From an uncultured Candidatus Poseidoniales archaeon (GTDB taxonomy: Archaea > Thermoplasmatota > Poseidoniia > Poseidoniales > Thalassarchaeaceae), in contig CAWVXH010000004.1 of the NCBI GenBank assembly GCA_963934165.1, positions 19,812-83,811 on the forward strand: a stretch of 64,000 nucleotides of DNA, given 5' to 3'. Shown in pieces: positions 18,324-34,962 of this stretch. The stretch's first letter is position 1. Each line of letters opens with the position of its first letter. A program made the position numbers and the translations under genes. The notes under the pieces were generated by a model, which had not been told where the DNA came from, made no database searches, and saw only the letters and a list, made by a program, of their open reading frames with translations.

Positions 18324-21300
18324 ATGACAGATAAGAAAATAATTGCAATAATGATGACACTTGGAATGCTCGCGGCTGCGTTCGCTGGTTGCCTAGGTGG
18401 AGAAGATGATCCGGAACCAGTTCCGGAAGACGTAATGGGTTGTATGGACGCGACAGCGAACAATTACAACGCAGATGCGACAGCGGATGACGGTTCGTGC
18501 ACATATGATGCAACAACAACGACCCTGAAAGTCGGATTCATGAATCCGCTTACAGGACCAATCGCTGTTTTCGCACCGGCATTCACTGATTCAATGATGC
18601 TGGCAAAAGCAGATTTGAACGCAATGGCGCCTGCCGATGTAGTAATCGAGATAATTGAAGTTGACTCAGGTTGTGACGGTACAGTCGCAGCTGGCGCAAC
18701 TCAATCCTTGGTTGACGCTGGTGTGGTCGTAATCGCAGGAGCTGTATGCTCCGGCGGAACAATGGCTTCAATCCCTGTAGCACAAGCTGCTGGTGTTCCA
18801 ATGATTTCCTACGCAAGTACTTCGCCTGCAATTACTGGCCTCTCGGACGACGATTACCTCTTCCGAGTGGTTCCTTCTGACGGACAGCAAGTACAAGCCC
18901 TCTCTGCTGTAGCCAATGATAACGGTTTTTCCAACCCTGGTATTCTCTACATGACTAACGATTATGGTGCTGGACTCAAAGATGGTTTCGTAGCAAGTTT
19001 TGGTGATGTTTGCACAACAGTCGGATATGACCAAGATGCAACTGACTTCGCGGGATTAGTATCACAAATAGCTGACGGTGGTTGCGATTCAGTCGCACTA
19101 TTCTCATATGCTGTTGATGGTGCTGCAATTCTAGAGGAAATGTCTGCACAGGATTTAGACATTCCAGTATTTGGAGCAGAAGGTGTTTCACCTGACGAGT
19201 TATCTGATGTTTCAGCAATCGATGGTATGATAGTAACTCAGCCACGTTCTGGTGGTCAATCAGATGCTGCTGATGCTTTCGATGCAGCTTATGCTGCAGC
19301 AAATGGTGCAGATGGTGGAATTTACCATCATGAAACATATGATGCAGTAATGATTGCTGGTAAGGCAGCATTGGCAGCTCACGCAGCTGGCAGTGATGAC
19401 CTCCGCGCTCACGTCCGTGCAGTAGGTACAAACTACGTAGGGACTAGCGGAACACACACATTCGATGCAAATGGAGATGTCGCTGGTTCAGGATACTTAG
19501 TCTGTGAATTCACAGTTGATGCAGTCGCCGAACTTTATTGCTACGGGCAATGGATTCTAGGGGAAGGACTCTCAATGAACGCAGATGCTGGTGATGCACC
19601 AATTATGGATCAATACGAAGATGGTGAAATGACATACGCAGAAGCATGGACAGCTCTTGAAGGTGTTCGAGCATGCGTAGAAACTGGATCCAATAACCCA
19701 TGTGAGATTGTCTCGATGGGCTACGGAGATGCAGCAACTCTAGATCCACACGATGCATACGATAGTGCATCTGGTGACATTATCGAAAATGTATATGATA
19801 CATTGTACCGATATGAAGGAGATGGCGACGGAAACGCAATCATCGTCCCTCGTCTTGCAACTGGATACACAGTCAGTGATGACATGTTGACCTACACCTT
19901 CACTCTACGTGATGATGTACACTTCAGCAATGGTGACTCAATGACTGCACATGATGTTGTATATTCCTGGGAACGCGTAAATGAATACGGCGCACCTGAA
20001 TCACACGTTGCATGGATTACTCAGCAGAATTTCGATACTGATGGGCTAACATACATCGATGACACACACTTTTCAGTGACTCTATTCCAGCCATATGCTG
20101 GTTTCGTTTCGACAATCGCTTACACTGTAGGCGCTGTTGTCAACATGGATATGTGTGAAGCAAACCGTGTAGTTACCGCAGACGACCCAGCAACAACTGA
20201 TGCTGATGAGAGTTCTGATGATTGGTGCCACGGCTGGATGGACGAAGCTCCACTCGGTGCAGGTACTGGTGCATATATTCTAGACACATGGTCCCGTGAG
20301 GACAAGATTATCCTTACTCCAAACTGGATGCACTGGGACGCAGGTAACTTCAACATCAACAAGTTTACTGAAATGACAAACGTCGACGAATCGAACACTC
20401 GCTTGCTCGCATTCACTGACGGTGAAGCTGATTTCGGTGCTCTAAACTTCGAGGATTTACCTAACTTCTGCTACATCGATGCAAACGGAAACGGAATGTT
20501 CGATGCTGGTGAAGATGATGCCCTCGATGATAAGCCGAACATCGCAAGCAAAGATGGATACATTTGCACTTACAGAGAATCATTCACGATTACTCTAGCT
20601 GCTTTGAATCTTGATCCAAACGATGCTAATGAAGACCCTATCCTAAACTATGATACAGATGGAGATGGTGTAGATGACGCTAACGTTATGGCTAATCCAA
20701 ATGTCCGCACTGCAATTGCTTACGCGTTCGATTATGACACTGCTCGCAGAACTACATATGACAACAACTTGGCACCTGTGTACGGTCCAATTCCTAACGG
20801 ATTCCTATATGACGAATCTCAGTACGAAGTTTTCACATATGATTTGACATATGCTGAATCTCTTCTAGAAGATGCAGGATTTACCCGCCAGTACGATTGC
20901 GCTGAATTGGCTAACAACAACACCGTTGTTGTGCCTGTAGCTGACCGTGATGGAGATGAATGCCGCTTACCATCGATTCTACGAATCATGGCTAACGAAG
21001 GAAACGATTACCGTATCGCTATGGCTGCACAAATCGCACAATCATTAGGTTCGATTGGTGTTGCAACAGATGGTGATGCAAAGCCATGGGCTGAATATCT
21101 CGACATGTACTACACTGGAACATTCGAGATCAGGTTCAGTGGTTGGGCTCCTGATTATCTAGATCCAGATAATTACTGGTCCCCATTCGCTGCAAGCTCA
21201 GAGGATGTTTACGGTACTGGATACAACAATGCAGCATTAGATGATCTGCTTCAACAAGCAAAGGTCTCAACCGATGACGCAGAACGTCTCTCTCTTTATT

Positions 21301-21482
21301 CACAGGCGTTCGACCTATGGGTAGAGGATCCGAACATGATCATTATCGGTCAAGGAAATGGTATTGGTGCAAAGCACAATGATATCTGTTCAGCACCTTG
21401 GGCTGCTATCGGCTCAGCACACTGGTTCGACTATGATAAGCTACCAATGGTAGACGGCGCACTTGTTGGAAGCTGTTCTTGA
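18324..21482 (+). CDS. Lipoprotein fusing a type-1 periplasmic binding domain (LivJ/Leu-Ile-Val-binding-like) to a family-5 peptide/nickel binding domain (OppA/DppA-like)
   Basis: Lipobox AAFAGC, a GCMDATANNYNADATADDGSC module, then LKVGFMNPLTGPIAVFA...VIAGAVCSGG...YLFRVVPSD (PBP1). From about aa 455 it reads VSMGYGDAATLDPHDAYDSASGDIIENVYDTLY...WAPDYLDPDNYW (SBP family 5). Confidence 0.85.
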   Translation: MTDKKIIAIMMTLGMLAAAFAGCLGGEDDPEPVPEDVMGCMDATANNYNADATADDGSCTYDATTTTLKVGFMNPLTGPIAVFAPAFTDSMMLAKADLNAMAPADVVIEIIEVDSGCDGTVAAGATQSLVDAGVVVIAGAVCSGGTMASIPVAQAAGVPMISYASTSPAITGLSDDDYLFRVVPSDGQQVQALSAVANDNGFSNPGILYMTNDYGAGLKDGFVASFGDVCTTVGYDQDATDFAGLVSQIADGGCDSVALFSYAVDGAAILEEMSAQDLDIPVFGAEGVSPDELSDVSAIDGMIVTQPRSGGQSDAADAFDAAYAAANGADGGIYHHETYDAVMIAGKAALAAHAAGSDDLRAHVRAVGTNYVGTSGTHTFDANGDVAGSGYLVCEFTVDAVAELYCYGQWILGEGLSMNADAGDAPIMDQYEDGEMTYAEAWTALEGVRACVETGSNNPCEIVSMGYGDAATLDPHDAYDSASGDIIENVYDTLYRYEGDGDGNAIIVPRLATGYTVSDDMLTYTFTLRDDVHFSNGDSMTAHDVVYSWERVNEYGAPESHVAWITQQNFDTDGLTYIDDTHFSVTLFQPYAGFVSTIAYTVGAVVNMDMCEANRVVTADDPATTDADESSDDWCHGWMDEAPLGAGTGAYILDTWSREDKIILTPNWMHWDAGNFNINKFTEMTNVDESNTRLLAFTDGEADFGALNFEDLPNFCYIDANGNGMFDAGEDDALDDKPNIASKDGYICTYRESFTITLAALNLDPNDANEDPILNYDTDGDGVDDANVMANPNVRTAIAYAFDYDTARRTTYDNNLAPVYGPIPNGFLYDESQYEVFTYDLTYAESLLEDAGFTRQYDCAELANNNTVVVPVADRDGDECRLPSILRIMANEGNDYRIAMAAQIAQSLGSIGVATDGDAKPWAEYLDMYYTGTFEIRFSGWAPDYLDPDNYWSPFAASSEDVYGTGYNNAALDDLLQQAKVSTDDAERLSLYSQAFDLWVEDPNMIIIGQGNGIGAKHNDICSAPWAAIGSAHWFDYDKLPMVDGALVGSCS

Positions 21483-21514
21483 AAAATTTAGATAATTTCT
21501 GAATTACGTAAGGC

Positions 21515-21564
21515 CGGCGACCGTCGCAATTTGCGGCGGTCGTCGAGCTGTTTCATTTCTTTTT
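21515..21564 (+). terminator. Hairpin plus T-rich tract between the binding-protein gene and the permease genes
   Basis: CGACCGTCGC aattt GCGGCGGTCG forms a 10-bp stem with one G:U pair, followed by TGTTTCATTTCTTTTTA. Confidence 0.3.
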
Positions 21565-21669
21565 ATAGCACCCAGAATTTCAATGTGAATTTTTTTTATT
21601 AACATCGACATCAGCAATCCGATGAACTGATAACTCAAATGCCTTGCCAAAAAATGGAGTTGGTGTAAG

Positions 21670-22950
21670 GTGAAGTTACACGAGTTTATCGCTCGAAGAG
21701 TAATCTTACTAATCCCTGTAATGATGGGAGTTTCAATCCTCACGTTTTCATTGCTAAGCCTTGTCCCTGGCGACGCTGCTGCATCTGCTTGTGGAGATAA
21801 ATGTGGTGTAATTGTAGATATTGGCTGGTATGAAGTCGAAAATGAAACCACAGGAGAACTTGAAATTGTGAATGTGTCCATATCTGCTGTTGAATCAAAT
21901 AGAATGAGGATGGGGACAGAGGAGAATATCGTTGAGAAATACATGAAGTACATCGGAGTAGATGGACCTTATCTGGGGAATGAATATTTAATATTACAAT
22001 CCAATAATGAATTGAAACCTGTTCATGAAGTGGGAGATATCATTGAAAGGACGGGGCTCGTTGACGGATATTGGGGCGATTCAACATTATATCATCGCCC
22101 GGTAGCAGAAGTGGTCAAAGATGTCGCACCTGTGACCCTTGAGATGTCTTTTCTTGCTCTAGCAATTGCATATCCACTCGGTATTTCCCTAGGGATCTTG
22201 AGTGCGGTTTGGCAGGATAAAATTTTTGACCAACTATCCCGGTTGATGGCAATTGCCTTTGTTAGCTTACCGATATTTTGGTTGGCAATTTTATTTCAGA
22301 AATTATTTGCTACAAAAATTGGAATTTGTGATGATTTATTTGGAACCTCTGGAGGATGTTTCCCAATATTTGGACGCCACGACCCAAGTTTGGCATTTCC
22401 CTCGACTGGCTATGTAAATTATTATCCGTCAGAAGGAACAGGTTTCCATTTAATCGATAGTTGGTTTGTTTCTAGTGAAACTTTAGGTGGATTAGGATCT
22501 GATTATGACACCAGATGGAAATTATTTAAAGATACATTAATGCATCTGATGTTACCTTGTTTGACTCTAGGTATCGCAAGTGCAGGTAGTTTGTTACGGT
22601 ACATGAGATCGAGTCTTCTCGAAGTGTTACGAGAAGATTATGTTCGTACCGCGAGAGCAAAGGGGCTATCTGGTTCGAGAGTAATTTTAGTTCATGCTTG
22701 CCGTAACGCTCTTGTTCCAATTGTAACTTTACTCGGTTTCTCTATCGGTGCAGCCATCGGTGGAGCGGTATTAACCGAAACGATATTTGCATTTACTGGT
22801 ATGGGGAGAGTTGCTATTGAGGCAATTCAATATGATGACCAAATAGTGGTGATGGGAATTACCTTGATTACTTCTATTATTTTCCTTCTAGCAAATTTAA
22901 TAGTTGATATTTCTTATGCGATCGTTGATCCAAGGGTGAGACTAGAATGA
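21670..22950 (+). CDS. oppB: Opp/Dpp-type ABC transporter permease (OppB-like) with large extracytoplasmic loop
   Basis: ARRVILLIPVMMGVSILTF start region, YVRTARAKGL signature, and ANLIVDISYAIVDPRV at the C-terminus. Confidence 0.9.
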   Translation: MKLHEFIARRVILLIPVMMGVSILTFSLLSLVPGDAAASACGDKCGVIVDIGWYEVENETTGELEIVNVSISAVESNRMRMGTEENIVEKYMKYIGVDGPYLGNEYLILQSNNELKPVHEVGDIIERTGLVDGYWGDSTLYHRPVAEVVKDVAPVTLEMSFLALAIAYPLGISLGILSAVWQDKIFDQLSRLMAIAFVSLPIFWLAILFQKLFATKIGICDDLFGTSGGCFPIFGRHDPSLAFPSTGYVNYYPSEGTGFHLIDSWFVSSETLGGLGSDYDTRWKLFKDTLMHLMLPCLTLGIASAGSLLRYMRSSLLEVLREDYVRTARAKGLSGSRVILVHACRNALVPIVTLLGFSIGAAIGGAVLTETIFAFTGMGRVAIEAIQYDDQIVVMGITLITSIIFLLANLIVDISYAIVDPRVRLE

Positions 22951-24965
22951 TGTTAGATTATCTTTCTTCATTATCCCTATATGTGTTTCTGTCGTTCATA
23001 TTTGCTATTGTTTTCGGCGCCACAATGAAGCCACGTGATACTGGAATTGCAGGCATTATTTCTATTCTATTTATTCCTATTTCTGATGTTTTCCTTGTTT
23101 TCAGCATTTGTACAATTATACTGAGTGGAATTAAATATTGCCTGTCCTATTTTGGATATTCATGGAATGAACAATATGCAAAGGGTAGAGATGATCGTAA
23201 GGAAAGTATCCGTTTAATCGTTGAAGGATTTGAACAGAAGAAATCAGATATGCGGAGAAGCATTCTGATTTTCACTAGATCTACATTAGCAGTTGTTGGG
23301 GTATTATTAGTCATTACAGTCTCAATGTTGGCTGTTTTTGCTGAAGATATCGCTGTTGAACACCCAACTAGGGATTTACAGGACACAGAAGATGTATGGA
23401 GAATCGATTACGAACCACGGGCAGCTGAACCAGGTTCAGATGAATGCAGGGAACGTGAACAAAGAGTCTCTCTCACTGAATTGAGAAGATATGATACGAA
23501 TATTACTCCGGCTGTATCGGCGGATAAAATCGACCCAGATACAAAGTCATTCTATACTGACCCAGTTGATGTCTTAAACATTATAAAAATTGTGGATACA
23601 AAAGGATACAATAATTCGAATGGCCTAAATTTTTCTGAGCACGTAACAATTTTCACCGATGAAAATGGAACCGACTTTCTTTTGGTTTCAGAAGAATTAT
23701 TTGATATTCGTCAAATAACAACAATTTATGTCACCTATGAATTTGATAATAGTGAGATGGAAGTTTGGTGGATGCCGGAATCACATAATATCTGTATCCT
23801 CGGGACAAATTTTGAAGGTCACGATTTGTTCTCAAAAATTCTTTATGGGGCGAGAATTTCACTTAAAATAGGAATCACAGTTGCTTTCATGACAGTAACG
23901 CTCGGGACCATTATCGGCAGTATCAGTGGCTATTACGGCGGGCGTGTCGATGAATTTATCATGAGAATGACAGATGTGTTCTTTGCAGTTCCAGGACTTA
24001 TCTTAGCAATGGCATTTGTTGCAGTTTTAACCGCAATCCCTAGACTCGCTCTACCAATGGAATTTGCAGTGCTAATCCCATTAATATTCTTAATTTTTCA
24101 ATTCCAATCAAAAATTGATGAGTTAACGTCTGGTGAAGTTAGGGCACAATCCAATGAAGATAATTCATTATCACAACTGTTGAATGTAGTCGGAATCATG
24201 TCATTTGTTCTTGGATCTTTATACTTATTTTGGTCGTTTTGGCCTCAAATACCATTTGAGAATTCGTTAGAAGGTGCTACAAATGATGATGTTAATATGA
24301 GAACATTATTAATTTGTTCCACTTTCATCTTGGGTGTCATTGGAATATTATCTGTGACGATGGAACGTAGAGGGGTCAATCCCAAATCCGCTCTAAGTGG
24401 TCTATTTAATTCATTTTCATTTAATAATCCAGTTTCATATATCACGATGCGGACTATGTTATCTGCTCTAGCAATTTTCATTCTCATCAAATCTCTCTTC
24501 ACAATTGAACCTAAATGGATAATTATTCAGGACTTCGATAGACTCTGGAAAATCCAGGTTGCATTAATTTTCACAGGTTGGCCGGGGTATGCTCGCTTAA
24601 TTAGAGGTCAAGTACTCTATATCAGAGAAATGACTTTCGTTGAAGCTGCAAAAAGTGTTGGAGCCCCGTCATCTAGAATTATGTTTAGACACATTCTTCC
24701 CAATGCTTGGGCCCCCCTTCTAGTTGCATTTACACTAGATATAGGCGGAACCATACTCTCAGCAGCAGGTCTGTCGTTCATTGGTCTGGGGGCAGAGATG
24801 CATTCTGCTGAGTGGGGGAGAATGGTCTCAGATGGTAGGAAATGGTTCCTTAATGAGTGGTGGTTAGTTACTTTCCCTGGACTGGCAATCGCATTCACAA
24901 CTTTAGGGTTCAATCTACTAGGTGACGGACTAAGAGATGTTGTGGATCCAAGGAATAGGAGGTGA
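22947..24965 (+). CDS. oppC: Opp/Dpp-type ABC transporter permease (OppC-like), about double the usual size because of extra hydrophobic segments
   Basis: ILGTNFEGHDLFSKILYGARISL, GWPGYARLIRGQVL..FVEAAKSVGA, and GLNLLGDGLRDVVDPR. ATGA overlap with oppB. Confidence 0.85.
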   Translation: MMLDYLSSLSLYVFLSFIFAIVFGATMKPRDTGIAGIISILFIPISDVFLVFSICTIILSGIKYCLSYFGYSWNEQYAKGRDDRKESIRLIVEGFEQKKSDMRRSILIFTRSTLAVVGVLLVITVSMLAVFAEDIAVEHPTRDLQDTEDVWRIDYEPRAAEPGSDECREREQRVSLTELRRYDTNITPAVSADKIDPDTKSFYTDPVDVLNIIKIVDTKGYNNSNGLNFSEHVTIFTDENGTDFLLVSEELFDIRQITTIYVTYEFDNSEMEVWWMPESHNICILGTNFEGHDLFSKILYGARISLKIGITVAFMTVTLGTIIGSISGYYGGRVDEFIMRMTDVFFAVPGLILAMAFVAVLTAIPRLALPMEFAVLIPLIFLIFQFQSKIDELTSGEVRAQSNEDNSLSQLLNVVGIMSFVLGSLYLFWSFWPQIPFENSLEGATNDDVNMRTLLICSTFILGVIGILSVTMERRGVNPKSALSGLFNSFSFNNPVSYITMRTMLSALAIFILIKSLFTIEPKWIIIQDFDRLWKIQVALIFTGWPGYARLIRGQVLYIREMTFVEAAKSVGAPSSRIMFRHILPNAWAPLLVAFTLDIGGTILSAAGLSFIGLGAEMHSAEWGRMVSDGRKWFLNEWWLVTFPGLAIAFTTLGFNLLGDGLRDVVDPRNRR

Positions 24966-26631
24966 TTTGTTGAGTGACGAAGTATTACTAGATGTCAAAG
25001 GACTTAGAGTCCATTTTGATACTCTCACGGGACCTATCGAGGCGCTACATAATATCGATCTCAAGGTGATGAAAGGTGAGATTCGTGGTGTGGTGGGTGA
25101 ATCAGGATGTGGGAAATCAGTAACTTCTCTTACCGCAATAGGTCTGGCAACTTGTAAAGTTGATGAGGGTGAAATTTTGTATGATGGATACGATACTGTT
25201 TATCGTAGACAAGATAGGGAAAGATGGTTAATTCGACTTTCTACAATTATTTCTTACGTGGGAGCATTACTTATTATTTTCAACGTATTGAGAATTATTT
25301 TCGATACATCGGCCGTTTATGGTATCCTGCAAGGAGCTGCCATGATGCTCTTCGGTACCTTTGTTGGTTCAATCGGTAATTTATCGATGTATCGACATGA
25401 AAAGGAAATGAGGCGGATTCGAGGTAATGAAATTAGTATGATATTCCAAGAACCGATGACTGCATTGAATCCATTATATACAGTTGAAAAACAAATTTCT
25501 GAAGTAATGAAGGAACATAACCATCTTGTAGATAGAGAAACCTCGTATGTGAATAGAATAATTCGGGCATTATTGACTCCATCCACAACAATAATCTCAA
25601 AAACAAAGGAAAATCCAATTTCAACTTTAATTCCATTTGCAGTTTTATCCTTATATTTCTTGGTAATATCTAAGGGTGCATCAGATTCGTTTGAATCAAT
25701 CTCATGGTACTCCTTGCCACTCATTGTACTAATTGGCATTTTCATCGATGTAAGGGATAATCATTCGAAAAATTGGAATTCGAATGATACAATAAATTCT
25801 CTTAAGGCAGGATTATTTATTCTGCCGAATGCCTTTGCCTTTGCTCTCATCCTATACATGATGTTCTGGATGCCAATCGCTGCAATCATGGTAATTTTAA
25901 TTGGAACGTTTATCACGGCAATTACTGTAATGGTTCTGTCTGATTTACTAAAACTAGATTCGGCCCATTCCCGTCAAGTGGTCCAAATTATTGAAGATGT
26001 TCAAATTCCGAATCCCGGAACTGTAGCTACAATGTACCCCCATGAATTATCTGGGGGAATGAGACAAAGAGTGATGATCGCTATGATGATGTCTTGTGAA
26101 CCGAATCTGTTGATTGCGGATGAACCTACAACTGCTTTGGATGTTACAATACAAGCACAAATTCTCAAACTAATGCGAGAAATGAGAGATAGGAAGGGTA
26201 CATCGATCATGTTGATTACGCACGATTTGGGAGTAATTGCAGAGATGTGTGATACAGTTTCTGTGATGTATGCTGGAACTATTGTCGAATCAGGCTCTCT
26301 CGAAGATATTCTGACAAATCCAAGAATGCCGTATACAATCGGATTACTGCATAGTATCCCTCGTATCATCAAAGAATCCGAAGGTGATAGAAAAGACAGC
26401 CTACCAATAATTCCAGGCCAAGTCCCTAGTCCTAACGAGCACTTTGATGGCTGTAGATTCCATCCACGATGCCCATTTGCCGATGAAATTTGCATCTCAA
26501 CAAAACCTGAAAATGTAATGATTAAATCTGGTCATTTTGCAGCTTGTCACCATGTTGATAAAACCAAAAATATTCTTGAGGTTGAATCTGCCTTTGAGAA
26601 TCTTGCGAGTAAATTGATGGAGGTGAACTAA
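24937..26631 (+). CDS. oppD: Opp/Dpp-type ABC transporter ATPase (OppD-like) carrying two hydrophobic insertions
   Basis: Walker A GESGCGKS, Q-loop ISMIFQEPMTALNP, signature LSGGMRQRV, Walker B LLIADEPTTALD, and a C-terminal oligopeptide-type domain (CRFHPRCP). The likely true start is TTG at 24967/24970, just after AGGAGG (24956-24961). Confidence 0.85.
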   Translation: MLWIQGIGGDLLSDEVLLDVKGLRVHFDTLTGPIEALHNIDLKVMKGEIRGVVGESGCGKSVTSLTAIGLATCKVDEGEILYDGYDTVYRRQDRERWLIRLSTIISYVGALLIIFNVLRIIFDTSAVYGILQGAAMMLFGTFVGSIGNLSMYRHEKEMRRIRGNEISMIFQEPMTALNPLYTVEKQISEVMKEHNHLVDRETSYVNRIIRALLTPSTTIISKTKENPISTLIPFAVLSLYFLVISKGASDSFESISWYSLPLIVLIGIFIDVRDNHSKNWNSNDTINSLKAGLFILPNAFAFALILYMMFWMPIAAIMVILIGTFITAITVMVLSDLLKLDSAHSRQVVQIIEDVQIPNPGTVATMYPHELSGGMRQRVMIAMMMSCEPNLLIADEPTTALDVTIQAQILKLMREMRDRKGTSIMLITHDLGVIAEMCDTVSVMYAGTIVESGSLEDILTNPRMPYTIGLLHSIPRIIKESEGDRKDSLPIIPGQVPSPNEHFDGCRFHPRCPFADEICISTKPENVMIKSGHFAACHHVDKTKNILEVESAFENLASKLMEVN

Positions 26632-27627
26632 TTGTCTGAACCTCCTCTGATAGAAATGAAAAATATTAAAAAATGGTTCCCGATAAAAGCCGGAATGCTT
26701 TCAGCTGTAAAATCACATGTCCGCGCAGTAGATGGAGTCAATTTATCTGTAATGGAGGGAGAAACTCTTGGCATCGTAGGGGAGTCTGGCTGTGGGAAAA
26801 CTACACTTGGCCGTGTTTTATTGGGTTTGACTCCGATTACTGAGGGGTCAGTCGAATATAATGGGGTCGACATCAGAATGATGAAAAATCGTGAACTTCG
26901 GAAAAAGATGCAAATTGTCTTCCAAGACCCAGGTGGATCGATGAATCCACGAATGTCTGTAAGGTCAATCGTCGGAGAACCGTTAATCATCAATGGAATG
27001 GCAGATGGGGCTGAACTGACAAAAACTATTGGTGAATTATTAGAATCAGTCGGGTTAAGCAAAAATTTGATGACTCGTTTCCCTCATGAATTTTCAGGTG
27101 GCCAGAAGCAGCGAATTGCCATAGCACGCGCACTGGCTCTAAATCCTGAATTTATTCTCTTAGACGAGCCGACAAGCGCGCTCGACGTATCTGTCCAAGC
27201 ACAGGTGTTGAATCTGTTAGAAGATATTCAGGGAGAAAAAGGCTTGACATTTGTATTCATTACTCATTCTCTTAACGTGGTTCATCATATTTCTGATAGA
27301 GTAGCTGTGATGTATCTCGGAAAGATAGTTGAATTATCTGATACCGTAGGATTGTTTGAAAACCCAGCCCACCCATACACTCACGCACTTCTTTCTGCAA
27401 TCCCTGAAATTTCCATTGAGGACTCTGATGAAAGAATAATTCTTTCAGGAGATGTTCCAAGTCCAGCGAATCCACCCCCTGGCTGTGTATTCCACACAAG
27501 ATGCCCGATAGCAAAAGAAGGAGTTTGTGATGTTGAAGTCCCTGAATTATCATCGATTTCTAGTGGACATTTAGTTGCATGCCATTTCCCAGTTGAACCA
27601 GGGAAATCACTTCCAATTGTCAATTAA
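26632..27627 (+). CDS. oppF: Opp/Dpp-type ABC transporter ATPase (OppF-like)
   Basis: GESGCGKTT, MQIVFQDPGGSMNP, FSGGQKQRIAIARAL, ILLDEPTSALD and CVFHTRCP. Confidence 0.9.
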   Translation: MSEPPLIEMKNIKKWFPIKAGMLSAVKSHVRAVDGVNLSVMEGETLGIVGESGCGKTTLGRVLLGLTPITEGSVEYNGVDIRMMKNRELRKKMQIVFQDPGGSMNPRMSVRSIVGEPLIINGMADGAELTKTIGELLESVGLSKNLMTRFPHEFSGGQKQRIAIARALALNPEFILLDEPTSALDVSVQAQVLNLLEDIQGEKGLTFVFITHSLNVVHHISDRVAVMYLGKIVELSDTVGLFENPAHPYTHALLSAIPEISIEDSDERIILSGDVPSPANPPPGCVFHTRCPIAKEGVCDVEVPELSSISSGHLVACHFPVEPGKSLPIVN

Positions 27628-27667
27628 GTTGGGAAGAAATCAAGACTAAGCTCATTTTCGTGAGTTC

Positions 27668-28009
27668 ATGAAGGATGGACACGAAGATGATTTGTTCATC
27701 GATAATCGAAAGGACTCAGAGTCAGCATTTTGGAGAATTAAAAATGCGGCTGACGCACAGAGGGATGAGCGTGTCCATCGAATTCTAGCGCAAGAAGGTG
27801 AGAGCATCTGGCTAACTCTAGGCCGACCTCTCTACATATCAATCTGCATTTTATTTGATTTTCTAATATTGTCTGAAATCATTTTTCTGTTCGAAAACTA
27901 TTATGTCGGCCTAATTTTATTCGCACTAATTTTAGGATTTGTTATGACCGTTCAAAAAAGGTTCTACGATGACAAATTCAAATTGGATTCGGGACTGAAT
28001 GATAAATAA
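27668..28009 (+). CDS. Hypothetical small membrane protein
   Basis: 113-aa ORF with a charged N-terminal half followed by two hydrophobic segments. Confidence 0.4.
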   Translation: MKDGHEDDLFIDNRKDSESAFWRIKNAADAQRDERVHRILAQEGESIWLTLGRPLYISICILFDFLILSEIIFLFENYYVGLILFALILGFVMTVQKRFYDDKFKLDSGLNDK

Positions 28010-28043: not shown

Positions 28044-29300
28044 TCAGACAGATGGCTCAGATGGAATAATTGGAAATTGTTCTGTCGCAACTCTCTCAAA
28101 GCGTCGAAACGATGGAACGATTATTCCAATTATCGTCGAAGCAACCATAATCGAAACGGCGATGAATACTGTTGCAGTTAAACCAATTCCATCAATCAAA
28201 TATCCCCCCATAATCGGAGCGAATGGAATAAATAAGAATGAACCGATAGCATCAATCGAATTGACTCTTCCTCGAAGATGTTGATCTACGCTATCACCAA
28301 TCGTAGTATTCCATATCACTCCAAGGACTCCTATGATTAATCCTTGAACTAGTGCGATAAGTAAAATGCCGAAGAACCAAGGTGTCATTACATAGAGAAT
28401 ATCAAGCCAAGCAGCTATGCTAACTGTAACATAAAATATTGTTCCACGGATTGATTTCGGAATTGGTTTAGATCCTGCATACAATGCTCCGATAGCAGCG
28501 CCAATAGGAGTCGTAGCCCCCCATAATCCATAATGAATTGCATTCCAATCATTTTTTTGGACAATAAAAGGAATGCCGATGTCCATCACTGCACCTCCAA
28601 TGTGGAATACCATGAAAGCTAAAATACCAACCAATAGCCATGGTTGACTTAGGACGAAATCTCCTGCTAACTTCATTTCAGTTTTGAAATCTCCACCGTC
28701 TCCATTTTCTTCTAGTTTTTTAATTGGTACCTCGTCAATCTGCATCAAAAATGCAGCGCTAATCAAAAAGGTTAGCAAATCGATCCAAAGGGCGAATTGA
28801 AGCCCAAAAAAATGAATTGCTAATCCACCGACTAATCCTCCAATAGACCAAGCAGCAGTACGGGAGGCATTGTGTAATCCAGTTGCTGCAGCCAAAGTTT
28901 CTTCATCAACTAAATCTGGGACGAGTGCCTGAATTGCGGGCATCGAAAAAGCAGTCGAAGCACCCATTATAATAGAGGCAAAAATCATTACTTTTACGAT
29001 ATCAATTCCGATAATTAGCATCATTATGAATACAAATGCAGAAACCGCTTGAATCAAATCCATGGCTAATGCGACTCTTTTTCTTGGCACTCGATCAACT
29101 AACATCCCCCCTACCATAATCAGAGGGAGATGTGCAAGAAAATATGCAGTCATTATCATGCCAAAGGCTTTCGGACCACCAATTTCTGCAACTTTCCAAC
29201 CCACTGCTGTCATGAAAGTTGCCCGGCCGAATTTACTAGCGGTATCACCCAGCACAAATAGGCGGAAATCGCGAATTACCCATGCGTCACTCAAAGCCAT
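28044..29300 (-). CDS. MFS transporter
   Basis: About 12 hydrophobic segments and an MFS loop motif GGMLVDRVPRKRV. Start chosen at MALSDAWVIRDFRLF. The maximal ORF extends to 29369. Confidence 0.75.
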   Translation of the reverse strand: MALSDAWVIRDFRLFVLGDTASKFGRATFMTAVGWKVAEIGGPKAFGMIMTAYFLAHLPLIMVGGMLVDRVPRKRVALAMDLIQAVSAFVFIMMLIIGIDIVKVMIFASIIMGASTAFSMPAIQALVPDLVDEETLAAATGLHNASRTAAWSIGGLVGGLAIHFFGLQFALWIDLLTFLISAAFLMQIDEVPIKKLEENGDGGDFKTEMKLAGDFVLSQPWLLVGILAFMVFHIGGAVMDIGIPFIVQKNDWNAIHYGLWGATTPIGAAIGALYAGSKPIPKSIRGTIFYVTVSIAAWLDILYVMTPWFFGILLIALVQGLIIGVLGVIWNTTIGDSVDQHLRGRVNSIDAIGSFLFIPFAPIMGGYLIDGIGLTATVFIAVSIMVASTIIGIIVPSFRRFERVATEQFPIIPSEPSV

Positions 29301-29555
29301 GACTGTTCGCCCAACATTGGGCACTTGAATCAATGGGGATTTAATTATCCAATTAATAAGCAAAAACAAGTCATTTGAGAAGTTTCATCCTATTGGGGGA
29401 CGGACTTTTGGGCAAATGTATAGTAAATCGACAAAACATTAGTCGAATGTATATTATTATCAATTATTAATGTTCGTTAGGTCAATAAATTGAGATTTTC
29501 ATGTCTATTTGAGCCAATGATTATAGTCGAATTGACTCCGCGTTAGAAGTATAGG

Positions 29556-31067
29556 ATGAATTCTATGTTGACATCGGAGAAAGCGAGTGGTTCAGTTATT
29601 TCAGAAGGTCGATTGTCTATGGAATCATTCGAGACAGAATCGGCACGTCGAGGGAGACAGATGGCTGATCTTTATCATCGCTATGGCATCGATACCGAAG
29701 AGATAGATGATGTACAATCTTTACCAATTCGATTCCTTGTCGAAGTCGGGAAGGTTGGCCTGGCAAAGTATATTTTCAAAGAAATAATTCACTACAAAGG
29801 AAACGCTGAGGTCATATTGTCTAGGCCTTGTACTTACGGTGTCTTCTCTGGGCCAGTCGGGGGTTTTTCCCCTCGTCCTCATCTTTGCGTAGGATGTTTA
29901 CGATGCACAATCCAACACCCAGAATTTGTCAAAGTTTTGCCAAATCCTGAACGGCTTTCACTGGGTGATTCATACACCACACATGGGCACATTGCTGCGA
30001 TTGATGAAGAGGCGAAGAAAGGCATGGTTCCAGTTCGTGGGCAGGGTTATCGGGGTAGATTTGGTGGCCCTGGATTTGATGGGATGTTAACTGATATGTC
30101 GGAGATTGTTCGACCGAGCAGAGATGGAATTCATGGGCGTGAATTAATTGGAACTTCGGTTGACATCGGCTCTAAACCAATGCACCTATCCTTTGATGAA
30201 AAAGGTGAAATAAAAGGAATACAACCTAAAATGTTCAGCATCCAAGTACCATTTATATTCGACCTTCCACCAGGTAATTTGGGCACTGAAAAATTGATTC
30301 GAGTAATCGATTTAACGAGTAAAGGGATTGATACTTTAGCATGTGTAAATAGTAGTGATGTTGAACGAATGGCAATTGATTCTGCAAATATTATTCCAGT
30401 TCTTTCAATTGATGAGGCCGAAAAGTCCTCGAATTACCCCAATGCTCGCCTTATTCAATTAGATGGATGGGATAGTTCAGCAGTAGATAAAGCACGTTCG
30501 GTTAGTGACGCTATGATAGGTGTAAGGATAAAATTCGAAGAAGGATGGCAACTTCGACTCGATTCTGCGGTAAATTATGGTGTTGAAGTGATTCACCTGC
30601 TAGCAGACCTACATGGTAGAGGTGAAGATGGCCAATTCGTCACCGAATTATTCAAAGAAGCTCATTTGAGATTAATCGAGCAAGGTCGTCGCGACCTTGT
30701 GACATTAATTGGTGCCGGCGGAATTGTTGGAGCCGACCACGTTCCTAAATCGATAATCAGTGGGCTTGATGCAGTTGCACTAGATCTTCCAGTTCTTTTC
30801 GCATTACAAGGTCGTTCAGATGGATCACTGGTTGAAAGAGCAGGAGTAATCGGTAATTTACCAAATAAAATGGATGAAGGATGGGCCGAACAACGATTGA
30901 CCAACCTTTGTGGAAGTTGGCGAGATCAATTGCTCGAAATTCTCGGTGCGATGGGAATTAGAGAAGTGCGTCGACTCCGTGGTGAATTCGGGCGTTCGAT
31001 GATAGTTGAACACCTTGAGGATGAAGCTTTTGAAGGAATAGCAGGTTATGTCGGAGGTGGTAATTAA
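29556..31067 (+). CDS. Glutamate-synthase-related protein: divergent FMN-barrel-like paralog with an N-terminal Cys cluster
   Basis: C-x21-CVGCLRC cluster. The C-terminal TLIGAGGIVGADHVPKSIISGLDAVALD parallels TLIASGGIRTADDMAKAIALGADGCVLG in the next ORF. There is a 1-nt overlap with the next gene. Confidence 0.55.
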   Translation: MNSMLTSEKASGSVISEGRLSMESFETESARRGRQMADLYHRYGIDTEEIDDVQSLPIRFLVEVGKVGLAKYIFKEIIHYKGNAEVILSRPCTYGVFSGPVGGFSPRPHLCVGCLRCTIQHPEFVKVLPNPERLSLGDSYTTHGHIAAIDEEAKKGMVPVRGQGYRGRFGGPGFDGMLTDMSEIVRPSRDGIHGRELIGTSVDIGSKPMHLSFDEKGEIKGIQPKMFSIQVPFIFDLPPGNLGTEKLIRVIDLTSKGIDTLACVNSSDVERMAIDSANIIPVLSIDEAEKSSNYPNARLIQLDGWDSSAVDKARSVSDAMIGVRIKFEEGWQLRLDSAVNYGVEVIHLLADLHGRGEDGQFVTELFKEAHLRLIEQGRRDLVTLIGAGGIVGADHVPKSIISGLDAVALDLPVLFALQGRSDGSLVERAGVIGNLPNKMDEGWAEQRLTNLCGSWRDQLLEILGAMGIREVRRLRGEFGRSMIVEHLEDEAFEGIAGYVGGGN

Positions 31068-32386
31068 TGACGATTGTAAAACCTAGTGATATTCTAATTG
31101 AGAAGACGACAAATCTGCTACAAAATGGGATGAATGCACGAGCTTTTGGCGACTTTGGTGTCCCTGAAGCATTGGGTGATGCCCGTTGGACGGATGAGTT
31201 AATTCTCTCGACTTGGCACATGGCAGAAACAGGTAAAATTCCTGAAAAATTAAATTTCAAAACCGGAAATTCAGGTGGTGGATTTGACCGACTTAAATTC
31301 CAATTCCTCGATGAATCCGAATGGCTCGAGCATTCTGAAAAAATTTCAACGAAACTCGATTTGAATCGCCGCGGAGATGAGAAGAACAAGATTTCCATCG
31401 ACATCCCATGGTATGGCGGCGGGATGTCATACGGGTCGGTCTCGGTTAACGTAATGATGTCACGAGCCCGAAATGCTCGGAGATGGAATTCCTTCATCTC
31501 GACCGGTGAAGGTGGTTATCCTACTGAATTAAGAGAGGTTGAAGAGAATGTTATCACCCAGGTTGCTACAGGATACTTCGGTGTCGAAGAGGATACGATT
31601 CAAGCTGCACCGATTATTGAATTCAAGTATGCACAGGGAGCAAAGCCAGGGCTTGGAGGACATTTATTGGCTGCAAAAGCCGGAGAGGAAGTCGCGAAAT
31701 TACGGGGCAGTGTTCCTTTTGTTAGCCTATTCAGCCCCTTCCCATTCCATTCGACTTATTCTGTTGAAGATCACTCTAAACACTTGGACTGGATAGAGAC
31801 AGTCAACCCAAAGGCCTTGCTTTCTGTCAAGGTGAGTACACCTCACGACGTCGATATGGTCGCTATCGGTTCATTCTATGCTGGCGCTCATATTATACAT
31901 CTGGACGGCGGTTATGGTGGCACAGGTGCGGCCCCGGAAATTGCTAAGAAAAATATCGCAATGCCGATTGAGTTGGCTATTCCTAAAGTCCACAAATTCC
32001 TCGTTGCCGAGGGGGTTAGAGATAAGGTGACACTCATCGCTAGTGGAGGAATTCGAACGGCTGATGATATGGCAAAAGCGATCGCTCTAGGTGCAGATGG
32101 TTGTGTCCTCGGAACAACTGATTTGGTTGGCCTTGGTTGCACACGTTGTTCAAATTGTGAAGGTGGCCCCTCTGGCCGTGGATGCCCATGGGGATTAACC
32201 ACAACCGATATCGAATTACAAGAATGGGTGCCTCAAGATTGGGCTGTTCAGCGACTTGATAATCTCTACGGCGCTATGCAGTGGCGAATGCGAGAAATCC
32301 TTCGTAAACTCGGTCTTGATGATGTAACTCAATTGCGTGGTCGAACTGATCTATTACAATATATTCCTGAGGAGGCGAGCGAATGA
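31067..32386 (+). CDS. Glutamate synthase FMN-binding domain protein (GltB domain 2-like)
   Basis: EFKYAQGAKPGLGGHLLAAK, HLDGGYGGTGAAP, ASGGIRTADDMAKAIALGAD and the Cys cluster GCTRCSNCEGGPSGRGCPWG. Confidence 0.85.
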   Translation: MTIVKPSDILIEKTTNLLQNGMNARAFGDFGVPEALGDARWTDELILSTWHMAETGKIPEKLNFKTGNSGGGFDRLKFQFLDESEWLEHSEKISTKLDLNRRGDEKNKISIDIPWYGGGMSYGSVSVNVMMSRARNARRWNSFISTGEGGYPTELREVEENVITQVATGYFGVEEDTIQAAPIIEFKYAQGAKPGLGGHLLAAKAGEEVAKLRGSVPFVSLFSPFPFHSTYSVEDHSKHLDWIETVNPKALLSVKVSTPHDVDMVAIGSFYAGAHIIHLDGGYGGTGAAPEIAKKNIAMPIELAIPKVHKFLVAEGVRDKVTLIASGGIRTADDMAKAIALGADGCVLGTTDLVGLGCTRCSNCEGGPSGRGCPWGLTTTDIELQEWVPQDWAVQRLDNLYGAMQWRMREILRKLGLDDVTQLRGRTDLLQYIPEEASE

Positions 32387-34962
32387 TCGACCCGAACGTG
32401 ATAATGGATGCTCGGCGTCGAATGACTGCTCGCCATCCAAAATTTGAGCGCCGTGATGAAGATGCTGCTGAAGGCGGTTGCGGAGTTGTCGGTCTAGCCT
32501 GCGAAATTCCGGTTGCCGGCCGACATCTTTTCGATTCTTTAGAACAGATGCGTAATCGCGGAAACGGCAAAGGAGGCGGTGTTGCAATGGTTGGGTTGAA
32601 CCCCACTGATTTCGGTGTCAATCAAGAAATTCTTGACAATAATTATCTTTATGCAGTCGCATATCTTGACAGTAGTGTTCGCACTGCTGTTGAAGAAAAA
32701 TTCATTAATGAAAATTTTGAATTAATCCATGTTCACGACATGCCAACTCTGTCATCTTGGGAGAACGATTTACTTGCCTTAGATGTTCGCCCACCTGATG
32801 TAGTGGTATATTTCGTTAAACCTCGGAAATATAAAGTCGATGAGTTTATTGAATCTAGATTAGATGCTATCATCGATGCTTCCGACCGGGAAGCGGTCGA
32901 ACAAGAATTCGTCTTCCATGCAACTCATGAATTGAATGTGGAATTTTACGCAAAAGATGGCAGAACAGATGCCTTTGTTTTGAGTCATGGTAGAGACATG
33001 TTAATTCTGAAAATTGTCGGATATGCGGAAGACGTCATCAAGTATTATTGTCTTAATGATGTTACTTCTCACGTTTGGATTGGACATCACAGATATCCAA
33101 CTCGAGGAAGGGTCACACATCCGGGGGGTGCACATCCGTTCGGGCAGGGGATCGATGCTGCACTCGTTCACAATGGTGATTTTTCTAATTATGTTTCAGT
33201 GAAGGATTACTTGGCACAAAGGGGAATGGAGCCACTTTTCTTCACTGATACTGAAGTTGCTGCACTGGCTTATGATTTACACCGTCGAGTCTATGGTTAT
33301 TCTACTGAGCATGTGATAGAGAGTCTCGCACCAACTAGTGAACTCGATTTTATCATGCTTCCAGAAGAAAAGCAAGTTGTTTACGAGGCGATTCAGAAAA
33401 CCCATATTCACGGCTCGCCAGATGGCCCATGGTTTTTCATCATCGCACAGTCAAGTGGTACCACCCACCAATTGCTTGGGATTACTGACACTTCGATGCT
33501 GCGCCCGCAGGTATTTGCATATCAGCGTGGTGAGGTTGGAATTGCATTCTGTGGTTCGGAGAAACAAGTCATCGATGCAGTTCTCGATAGTTTAGCTAGT
33601 GAAGATACACGATTTTGGCGCAGAGCCGATGAATATTGGAACGCCAGAGGTGGTTCATACACCGATGGCGGGGCCTTCGTTTTCGATGTAGTTCCAAAAT
33701 CAGATGGCTCAAAGGAGTTGATAATGTCGGATAAATTTGGTAAGATAGTCAATACTCACCCTAATGGTGATTTCGAATTAACTTCCGCAACAGAGCAATC
33801 TGGAGTCGATATTTCTGGTGAGGGACAAGTGGTTTTCAATTCTGTTATCGAAGCATTACCTCATCTCGGTTGGGGCGAGGCTCGTGCTGTTTTGGATGAA
33901 ATTGAAGCCAATGTGAAAACTGCTGGACGAATGTGGGGTTGGGATATATTGACGTTATTGTTGGATAGAAAATACGACACTGGCTCACTTCGTTCCAGTC
34001 GTTGGTTCGATTTCGTTGAATCAAAACTTGTCAGAATAATCGCTTCATCTTCATCTCACCCTTGTGAAAATTACGTTGGCCAGAAGACGATAGGTCATCG
34101 TCCGAAACCGACTCATTCGAGCCAATCATTCGTTATCGATGCTAGAGGATATCCAATCGAAGGGTTAAATTCCTTCGCCCGGGAACTAGTGTCTCTATAC
34201 GAAATTGGCTGGATGAACTTCGTAATTCTTCATTGCCGTGGTCATCGCTTCATCGGTAATGGATTTGGGGCTAATACCGATGGTGTTCGAATCGATGTCT
34301 TCGGTGCTGTGGGGGATTATCTTGGCAGCGGTAATGATGGAATGATTATTCATATGCATGGAAATGGCCAAGATCAGATTGGCCAGATACATAAATCAGG
34401 AGAGTTGATCGTCCACGGAGATGTAGGTCAGTGCTACGGTTATGGTTCGAAGGGTGGGAAATTATTCATTCTTGGAAATGCTGCAGGACGCCCTATGATT
34501 AATAGTGTGGGAAGTCCTAAATTAGTCATCAATGGTACTGCTTTAGATTATCTTGCTGAGTCATTTATGGCTGGAGATCCTCTAGATGGTGGTGGATTTG
34601 TGATTGTGAATGGAATGCAATTTGACGAGAGAGGTGAACTAATTTCTCTCGAAACACCATACCCTGGTGGAAATCTATTCTCTCTTGCAAGCGGAGGCGC
34701 GATTTACATACGCGATCCGCGCCAAAGATTATCTGATTCACAACTAAATGGTGGTGCATTTACCGATATGACCGATGCTGATTGGGAAGTTGTTCAACCA
34801 ATTCTCTATAGAAATCAGGAACATTTTGGCATATCATTACAGCGTTTGCTAACCGTTGAGGGAGAAATTCGAAGCCCGGCTGAAGTTTACAGAAAAATCA
34901 TCCCTGTGAAATCGAAGATCCTGCATGCAGAAGCAGCATGGGCTGGACATGCTGTCAATTGA
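32383..34962 (+). CDS. Fusion of a class-II (Ntn) glutamine amidotransferase domain and a GXGXG beta-helix domain (GltB domains 1 and 3-like)
   Basis: GGCGVVGL (candidate Ntn Cys after a ~33-aa propeptide), HHRYPTRG and HNGDFSNY. The C-terminal part reads GHRFIGNGFG..DVFGAVGDYLGSGNDGMIIHMHGNGQDQIG..VHGDVGQCYGYGSKGGKLFILGNAG. Confidence 0.8.
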   Translation: MIDPNVIMDARRRMTARHPKFERRDEDAAEGGCGVVGLACEIPVAGRHLFDSLEQMRNRGNGKGGGVAMVGLNPTDFGVNQEILDNNYLYAVAYLDSSVRTAVEEKFINENFELIHVHDMPTLSSWENDLLALDVRPPDVVVYFVKPRKYKVDEFIESRLDAIIDASDREAVEQEFVFHATHELNVEFYAKDGRTDAFVLSHGRDMLILKIVGYAEDVIKYYCLNDVTSHVWIGHHRYPTRGRVTHPGGAHPFGQGIDAALVHNGDFSNYVSVKDYLAQRGMEPLFFTDTEVAALAYDLHRRVYGYSTEHVIESLAPTSELDFIMLPEEKQVVYEAIQKTHIHGSPDGPWFFIIAQSSGTTHQLLGITDTSMLRPQVFAYQRGEVGIAFCGSEKQVIDAVLDSLASEDTRFWRRADEYWNARGGSYTDGGAFVFDVVPKSDGSKELIMSDKFGKIVNTHPNGDFELTSATEQSGVDISGEGQVVFNSVIEALPHLGWGEARAVLDEIEANVKTAGRMWGWDILTLLLDRKYDTGSLRSSRWFDFVESKLVRIIASSSSHPCENYVGQKTIGHRPKPTHSSQSFVIDARGYPIEGLNSFARELVSLYEIGWMNFVILHCRGHRFIGNGFGANTDGVRIDVFGAVGDYLGSGNDGMIIHMHGNGQDQIGQIHKSGELIVHGDVGQCYGYGSKGGKLFILGNAAGRPMINSVGSPKLVINGTALDYLAESFMAGDPLDGGGFVIVNGMQFDERGELISLETPYPGGNLFSLASGGAIYIRDPRQRLSDSQLNGGAFTDMTDADWEVVQPILYRNQEHFGISLQRLLTVEGEIRSPAEVYRKIIPVKSKILHAEAAWAGHAVN

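Follow-up and report, generated by a model that had tools for sequence, protein, structure and literature searches.

Predicted membrane hairpins inserted into the OppD-like ATPase of a Marine Group II peptide transporter

Introduction

A contiguous stretch of 64,000 nucleotides from an uncultured Candidatus Poseidoniales archaeon of Marine Group II (MGII; contig CAWVXH010000004.1, positions 19,812 to 83,811 of the forward strand), here called the window, contains an operon for an ATP-binding cassette (ABC) importer. Pfam and NCBIfam place its transporter genes in the Opp/Dpp (peptide/nickel) family. The transporter family itself is well known. The surprising part, as far as can be judged from the sequence, is the OppD-like ATPase (564 amino acids (aa); 24937..26631, + strand), which carries two membrane-like insertions with six hydrophobic segments of transmembrane (TM) grade. 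From the sequence and a structure model, we consider it likely that these inserts enter the membrane as hairpins from the cytoplasmic side, and that OppD is an integral membrane protein tethered beside the permease OppB.

The ATPase domains of ABC transporters are generally regarded as soluble proteins that contact the membrane domain only via coupling helices. Transmembrane hairpins in the helical subdomain of such an ATPase would, if confirmed, depart from this rule and could serve as a natural experiment on the tightness of coupling. A literature search turned up no account of transmembrane insertions, either within an ABC ATPase domain or among the Opp proteins of MGII.

Results

The catalytic core of OppD

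The catalytic motifs of OppD are complete and in the canonical order of an ABC ATPase: Walker A (GESGCGKS, aa 54-61), Q-loop (IFQEP, 169-173), signature (LSGGM, 371-375), Walker B (LLIADEP, 391-397), D-loop (TALD, 399-402) and H-loop (ITHDL, 427-431). The protein matched Pfam ABC_tran and, at its C-terminal end, oligo_HPY (PF08352, aa 450-519, E-value 2.9e-19). The initial annotation of this DNA, made without database searches, had described a protein of 564 aa with all ABC motifs, and both the length of the open reading frame (ORF) and the motif set agree with this description. Four cysteines near the C-terminus (C506/C512/C519/C537; 26452..26547, + strand) match the [4Fe-4S] site of E. coli DppD, and OppF has the same C-terminal four-cysteine motif (27484-27582). 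In E. coli, the C-terminal cysteines of DppD and DppF bind a [4Fe-4S] cluster (PMC12136057). The AlphaFold model of OppD has a predicted local distance difference test (pLDDT) score below 50 in the region of the motif, as expected in the absence of the cofactor. Judged by its motifs, OppD is a complete and presumably active ABC ATPase.

OppD did not reach the curated NCBIfam cut-offs for either OppD (294.5 bits, cut-off 575) or DppD (281.8 bits, cut-off 541). The best NCBIfam matches were each split into three stretches, because the inserts interrupt the alignment. By these scores, the protein is a divergent Opp/Dpp member and not an equivalog. It departs from the norm of its subfamily, a soluble, peripheral protein of about 320-340 residues, both in its length and in its six TM-grade segments.

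Position and hydrophobicity of the inserts

The alignment of OppD with solved OppD/DppD chains breaks at two places, between query residues 82 and 155 (opposite about 22 chain residues) and between 200 and 343 (opposite about 2). These breaks, together with hydrophobicity and the AlphaFold model, delimit two inserts. Insert 1 (aa ~83-155; 25183..25401, + strand), a predicted helical hairpin, is located in the loop ahead of the Q-loop strand. It comprises two TM-grade segments (aa ~98-122 and ~129-148) with Lys/Arg-rich flanks, connected by an acidic turn that is free of Lys and Arg. Insert 2 (aa ~201-342; 25537..25962, + strand) is located in the helical subdomain, right behind the helix that contacts the coupling helix of the permease. 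It starts with an amphipathic stalk helix (204-225), followed by four segments (~227-246, ~254-272, ~291-311 and ~314-338), the last two of which are joined by a conserved W311-M-P313 turn. Both places had been recognized in the initial annotation, as an insertion with two hydrophobic stretches at 25207-25411 and another with four or five at 25549-25972. For the latter, we count four segments and not five.

Hydrophobicity was evaluated on a biological insertion scale, using simple sums over 17-residue windows, a length that was calibrated on OppB and OppC helices and on soluble controls. A strict 19-residue threshold missed three of the six OppD segments, and also missed genuine permease helices. 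The sums for the six segments (-2.6 to +2.7) fall within the range of the canonical OppB and OppC helices (-3.0 to +3.2), and the 0.1 percentile of 1593 soluble control windows from the same operon is 3.1. The hydrophobic moments of the six segments (0.04-0.17) are as in canonical transmembrane helices. The stalk helix (204-222) has a moment of 0.54, an amphipathicity as expected for an interfacial stalk.

OppDs with such segments are rare. The segment detector found none in 18 ordinary bacterial OppDs, in three OppFs or in a Thermoplasmatota OppD. Among 91 diverse representatives of the OppD family there were four positives, namely a truncated MGII-type protein, a permease-ATPase fusion, a core strand that was a false positive, and a 412-aa relative with one hairpin (P0261, see below). 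About one of these is an unrelated case. These counts bear out the earlier statement that the feature is very unusual.

The hydrophobicity of the segments is also relevant to a reading in which the inserts are cytoplasmic helical domains without membrane contact, forming a hydrophobic bundle, a pocket that binds a hydrophobic ligand or a protrusion of the SMC/Rad50 type. In a Thermoplasmatota OppD, the insertions in these two loops are hydrophilic and charged, the NCBIfam models of mycoplasma OppD (NF043079, 561 positions) and OppF (NF043078, 649 positions) are long, and Pfam SMC_N matched weakly at aa 222-445. However, six permease-grade and barely amphipathic segments would be insoluble in the cytoplasm, and both the lack of Lys and Arg in the turns and the fast drift of the inserts under retained hydrophobicity (see below) speak against cytoplasmic domains, which we regard as very improbable. 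An SMC/Rad50-like coiled coil was rejected on the basis of the low moments and TM-like hydrophobicity, and the SMC_N match scored 19 bits against a cut-off of 40.

Topology and structure prediction

The number of membrane crossings is necessarily even in an insertion that leaves a cytoplasmic domain and re-enters it. In a set of 122 family members, insert 1 had two segments in every protein. Insert 2 had four segments in 118 proteins, six in one, two in one and three in two, and in each of the two odd cases a sub-threshold segment was visible. Even parity was also found across lineages with insert-2 lengths that give two to six segments, threshold cases aside. The hairpin turns contain on average 0.02-0.03 Lys plus Arg, and the turn of insert 1 about one acidic residue (0.96 Asp plus Glu). 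Three of the four insert flanks contain 2.8-5.8 Lys plus Arg per 15 residues. As read from the sequences, the distribution of charges follows the positive-inside rule.

The AlphaFold2 model of OppD, based on an alignment of 121 sequences, had a mean pLDDT of 70. Insert 1 was predicted as a long helical hairpin (residues 93-119 and 126-165, pLDDT 86-92), the second helix of which continues directly into the Q-loop strand. Insert 2 was predicted to be all helical (204-225, 227-245, 249-254, 259-275, 283-311 and 314-338). In a Foldseek search against the PDB, the match with E. coli OppD/DppD was limited to the core (TMt 0.70, TMq 0.41), and no counterparts of the inserts were returned.

A membrane-embedded OppD is the best reading of these data because hydrophobicity, low hydrophobic moments, conservation, even parity, the positive-inside pattern and the predicted helices all fit it. 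Nevertheless, several observations weigh against it. The C-terminal flank of insert 2 is not rich in Lys and Arg (1.2 Lys plus Arg versus 2.0 Asp plus Glu), and the model confidence for this insert is moderate (pLDDT 50-80). Segment counts such as 122 of 122 come from related proteins, so that they do not represent independent events. Insert 1 exits at the start of the Q-loop strand, probably on the lateral face of the domain, and would thus need stalks of about 15-25 residues to reach the bilayer. Finally, some segments are short (16-19 residues) and their turns very tight, which would fit re-entrant, non-crossing hairpins as well.

This last point brings up a serious, if unlikely, alternative, in which the hairpins are monotopic and serve as re-entrant or interfacial anchors in the cytoplasmic leaflet without spanning the membrane. 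Apart from the short segments, it would account for the turns of 3-7 residues rich in Pro and Gly (WMP in MGII; LPIPG and GWSF in the bacterial Marinimicrobia, which have hydrophobic inserts at the same sites, see below) and for the 47 of 118 Marinimicrobia proteins in which only one arm of insert 1 exceeds the threshold. Even parity and turns without Lys and Arg fit it equally well. On the other hand, the AlphaFold helices of the window protein are 19-29 residues long (40 for helix 126-165) and the hydrophobic stretches 19-25, which is enough to span a membrane, and the conserved acidic residue in the turn of insert 1 would be unfavourable within the bilayer.

Conservation across Marine Group II

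More than 120 clusters (90% identity) of OppD proteins of 562-607 aa, with source names of Poseidoniales, Thalassarchaeum or Methanobacteriota archaeon, keep both inserts. We also searched 1.84 billion representatives exhaustively and without a profile, using OppD aa 75-350 as the query. About a dozen clusters at 50% identity aligned across the inserts, and the remaining matches were confined to the Q-loop piece. A free-standing protein resembling the inserts was not found among these representatives.

A metagenome scan anchored on the small ORF downstream of OppF returned 32 loci. The gene order was identical in every locus that reached far enough (SBP-OppB-OppC-OppD-OppF-small ORF, where SBP is the substrate-binding protein). 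In these loci, OppC has 577-672 aa with 9-12 hydrophobic segments, OppD has 529-626 aa with mostly six, and OppF has none. The expansions of OppC and OppD were found together in all 17 loci with complete copies of both genes. The initial annotation had suggested checking whether the inserts are conserved in orthologous operons, and they are indeed kept, in the more than 120 clusters and in 17 metagenome loci. Its concern that orthologues might lack them, with the inserts being an assembly artefact, is answered by this conservation and by an independent contig (L085), which encodes an OppD that is 100% identical to that of the window.

The diversity of the OppD family is low, with four groups below 70% identity. 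Between the window and other clades, the core is 64-87% identical as compared with 16-26% for the inserts, which nevertheless retain their hydrophobicity. Fast drift with conserved hydrophobicity is the pattern expected of lipid-facing helices.

Poor assemblies of the locus do exist. Contig LWDU01032347 contains a near-identical operon (L084, 4614-7200), in which OppD and OppF are split into several ORFs. Its OppD pieces are 95-97% identical to the window protein, and the splits are most likely frameshift errors of that assembly. An artefactual origin of the inserts in the window, whether through mis-assembly or a chimeric ORF, from a mobile element such as an intein or as part of a pseudogene, is nevertheless scarcely conceivable. 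The gene is one intact ORF with both ATPase halves in frame, and the inserts recur in clusters from several sources as well as in the identical OppD of the independent contig. The conservation and the identical copy exclude the frameshift, pseudogene and assembly-artefact readings. An intein was rejected, as OppD has neither a Hint/intein Pfam domain nor an HN[CST] junction.

Insertions at the same sites in other lineages

A scan of genome contigs with the OppD alignment yielded a Thermoplasmatota locus (L001), a Neomarinimicrobiota locus (L002) and bacterial outgroups, with no Poseidoniales among the matches listed. The 492-aa OppD of the Neomarinimicrobiota (Marinimicrobia/SAR406) locus carries a hydrophobic hairpin at the site of insert 1 and another at that of insert 2, and its OppC has 355 aa. 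This form of OppD is represented by at least 120 clusters (491-494 aa, 59-96% identity), and the operon (SBP640-OppB414-OppC350-OppD492-OppF337) is without the small ORF. The Marinimicrobia proteins (L002, L082, P0390-P0509) thus share with those of MGII the two loops and the turns free of Lys and Arg. They differ in the number of segments (2+2 versus 2+4 in MGII) and in the ordinary size of the accompanying OppC (350-355 aa).

In a neighbour-joining tree of the core (323 columns, inserts removed), MGII and Marinimicrobia were each monophyletic in 100 of 100 bootstraps and were sisters in none of the 100. The core identity between the two lineages (0.45) is not above that to ordinary bacterial OppDs (0.48, 0.51). 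A profile-profile alignment placed the inserts of both lineages at the same positions and gave no sequence match within them, so that this comparison does not support a shared ancestry of the inserts. Since the lineages are not sisters in the core tree, an independent gain of the hairpins is likely. The simplest reading of the sequences is that the two loops are permissive sites, at which hydrophobic hairpins may have been gained independently. An old transfer between MGII and Marinimicrobia, followed by divergence, is possible, given that the core tree is crude.

The insertions of the Thermoplasmatota OppD (454 aa) occupy the two loops that hold the MGII inserts, and are charged and hydrophilic, with no hydrophobic segment. 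This protein resembles the MGII OppD in being extended between Walker A and the signature, and differs in that the added sequence is charged. The OppF at this locus (428 aa; L001, 3543-6203) also has long charged, hydrophilic insertions. The C-terminal half of the window OppD aligned to positions 332-556 of the mycoplasma OppD model, which places some 230 additional residues of mycoplasma OppD ahead of the signature motif. The extra sequence in Thermoplasmatota and mycoplasmas indicates that the loops tolerate insertions.

The 412-aa protein P0261 has an insert-1 region of canonical length, a single insert-2 hairpin and MGII-like core motifs. By its sequence, it resembles an intermediate stage in the acquisition of the inserts. 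Together with P0004 (535 aa), it represents a type of OppD that is either paralogous or basal and has a distinct C-terminus (GCRFCQRM...HWVENCP.C).

Enlargement of OppC and the docking partner of OppD

The permease OppC (22947..24965, + strand) is also enlarged. The initial annotation had described it as a 672-aa protein with an insertion of about 170 aa and TM-like segments, and the alignment with DppC confirms this insertion, with four hydrophobic segments. Pfam BPD_transp_1 matched in two stretches (1.5e-30), and OppC aligned to DppC residues 76-157 and 165-298. The six-helix core is present, with the EAA coupling loop between TM4 and TM5, and is interrupted by the insertion in the TM3-TM4 loop (aa ~362-532; 24030..24542, + strand). 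In the PDB alignment, window residues 362-536 pair with DppC 157-165 only. The insertion starts after AVPGLILAMAFVAVL and contains TM-grade helices at 367-385, 414-432, 454-472 and 496-522, close to the helices at 371-394, 406-428, 446-475 and 501-518 in the AlphaFold model of OppC (pLDDT 62). It begins and ends on the outside. All of 120 OppC homologues (576-672 aa) keep it, with four segments in 110 and six in 7 of them.

Two further additions were found in OppC. The alignment gap relative to DppC revealed an insertion of about 130 aa in the extracellular TM1-TM2 loop (aa ~147-279; 23385..23783, + strand), which is conserved in the family and predicted to form a beta-rich domain (strands 169-266, pLDDT 72-85). 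The extra hydrophobic N-terminus noted in the initial annotation is present as an extension of about 85 aa (aa 1-~85; 22947..23201, + strand) with 2-3 hydrophobic segments and a pLDDT below 50. It is restricted to the small 672-aa clade of the window.

In E. coli DppBCDF, DppB pairs with DppD and DppC with DppF, and E114 of DppD forms a salt bridge to the coupling helix of DppB (contact pair K243(DppB)-E114(DppD)) (PMC12136057). Residue n of DppD corresponds to residue n+75 of the window OppD, so that E114 becomes E189 (25501..25503, + strand), which is invariant in the family alignments and precedes insert 2 by 12 residues. OppB (426 aa; 21670..22950, + strand; Pfam BPD_transp_1 and NCBIfam DppB profile) has a DppB-type coupling motif (RTARAKG, aa 326-332) with K331 at the position of DppB K243. 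Because the E189/K331 pair is conserved, the pairing in DppBCDF leads us to expect, by homology, that OppD docks on OppB, and OppF, which is ordinary, on the enlarged OppC. The start of insert 2 only 12 residues past E189 roots it on the membrane-facing side of the domain.

These results bear on the idea that OppD and OppC are a co-evolved pair, in which the OppD helices make specific packing contacts with the additional helices of the enlarged OppC. The two expansions coincide in all 17 MGII loci with complete genes, and the extra helices of OppC (four), OppD (six) and the small protein (two) would all have to lie somewhere around the edge of the 12-helix core and could meet there. However, homology puts OppD under OppB and OppF under OppC (PMC12136057; E189/K331), hairpins in OppD occur alongside an ordinary OppC in Marinimicrobia, and P0261 represents an intermediate form with a single OppD hairpin. 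Moreover, co-occurrence without variation within MGII gives no test of dependence. We therefore consider a co-evolved pair doubtful. The description of the expansions as "matching" in the initial annotation is not supported as it stands, given the Marinimicrobia operons. Of its proposal that OppD is membrane-embedded and packs on OppC, the embedding stands as the best reading, and the packing is called into question by the predicted docking on OppB and by the ordinary OppC of Marinimicrobia.

Other genes of the operon and its surroundings

According to the ORF list, the genes for SBP, OppB, OppC, OppD, OppF and a 113-aa protein form a single operon on the + strand (18324-28009). The SBP (1052 aa; 18324..21482, + strand; Pfam and NCBIfam) is a fusion of a LivJ-like Peripla_BP_6 domain (aa 67-385) with an OppA-like SBP_bac_5 domain (aa 507-959). 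It has one hydrophobic segment, an N-terminal anchor at aa 5-26, and a cysteine-flanked motif, CMDATANNYNADATADDGSCTY, near its N-terminus. Binding proteins of other MGII clades at the same operon position have 750-775 aa.

OppB has a hydrophilic insertion of about 70 aa (aa ~221-290) in the extracellular TM3-TM4 loop, the same loop that carries the four-helix insertion in OppC. The start codon of OppC overlaps the stop codon of OppB as ATGA. OppF (331 aa; 26632..27627, + strand; Pfam) lacks hydrophobic segments, and its whole length aligned with ordinary OppF/DppF. The initial annotation was thus right to call it ordinary.

The last gene of the operon (27668..28009, + strand) encodes a small membrane protein of 113 aa that has two TM-grade segments. 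Its N-terminal part is charged and contains the conserved motifs AFWR.K and LAQEGESI. The protein had no Pfam or NCBIfam match. Relatives with 39-99% identity were located directly 3' of OppF in 31 of 31 metagenome loci and in a further locus (L081). By its sequence and conserved position, the protein is a candidate sixth subunit of the MGII transporter.

Downstream of the operon (28044-34962), a major facilitator superfamily (MFS) transporter gene on the minus strand is followed by three + strand genes that are similar to an archaeal glutamate synthase in split form (with the domains Glu_synthase, GXGXG and GATase_6 at the syntenic locus L081). This downstream synteny of MFS and glutamate-synthase-like genes is common to the window and the main MGII clade.

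Discussion

In the arrangement that we favour, the six OppD helices would insert as three hairpins, each running into the membrane from the cytoplasmic side and back again. OppD would thereby become an integral membrane protein, permanently tethered beside OppB, and would contribute six helices to the membrane domain. With the four extra helices of OppC in its outward-facing TM3-TM4 loop and the small protein with its two TM-grade segments, the membrane domain would grow from 12 to about 24 helices. The likely consequence would be an obligatory, stable and asymmetric assembly of ATPase and translocator. More speculatively, the tether may secure stoichiometric assembly, and insert 2, being rooted in the rotating helical subdomain, may couple ATP-driven rotation to the extra membrane helices.

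A bolder version, which we put forward only tentatively, is that MGII and Marinimicrobia independently made OppD integral, and that the MGII additions form a second module of about 12 helices round the 12-helix translocator. If true, such a module would define a new architectural class of ABC importers, which pass the movement of the helical subdomain of their ATPase directly into the membrane.

MGII archaea and Marinimicrobia bacteria are among the most abundant heterotroph lineages of the ocean. A similar modification of OppD is fixed across Marinimicrobia. That two plankton lineages which occur together apparently gained it independently points to a selective advantage in this environment. 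The two lineages also provide two systems for comparison. In MGII, the oligopeptide transporter is described as a core feature of most genomes and central to a protein-degrading lifestyle (PMC6336850). Automatic annotation of the ATPase as "ABC transporter ATP-binding protein" conceals the inserts.

Among known systems, E. coli DppBCDF and OppBCDF and M. tuberculosis OppABCD (PDB 8z1v, 8z21, 8j5q) belong to the same family, have the same subunit set and gave the best sequence and fold matches. They have in common with the window transporter the ABC motifs, the four oligo_HPY cysteines, the RTA-type OppB motif and the E114/K243-type pair. In contrast, their OppD/DppD subunits are soluble proteins of about 325 residues without residues that match either insert, and these transporters have neither the four-helix OppC insertion nor the small sixth protein.

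P-type ATPases have cytoplasmic catalytic domains that are interrupted by transmembrane hairpins, so that a topology of the kind proposed here for OppD can be made. As their fold and mechanism are unrelated, the analogy concerns biogenesis only.

In SMC/Rad50 and UvrA, the ABC ATPase is interrupted between Q-loop region and signature by large insertions, either helical or consisting of a domain, at a site that is topologically equivalent to that of insert 2. Their insertions are soluble coiled coils or DNA-binding domains, whereas the insert helices of MGII OppD are non-amphipathic and of membrane grade.

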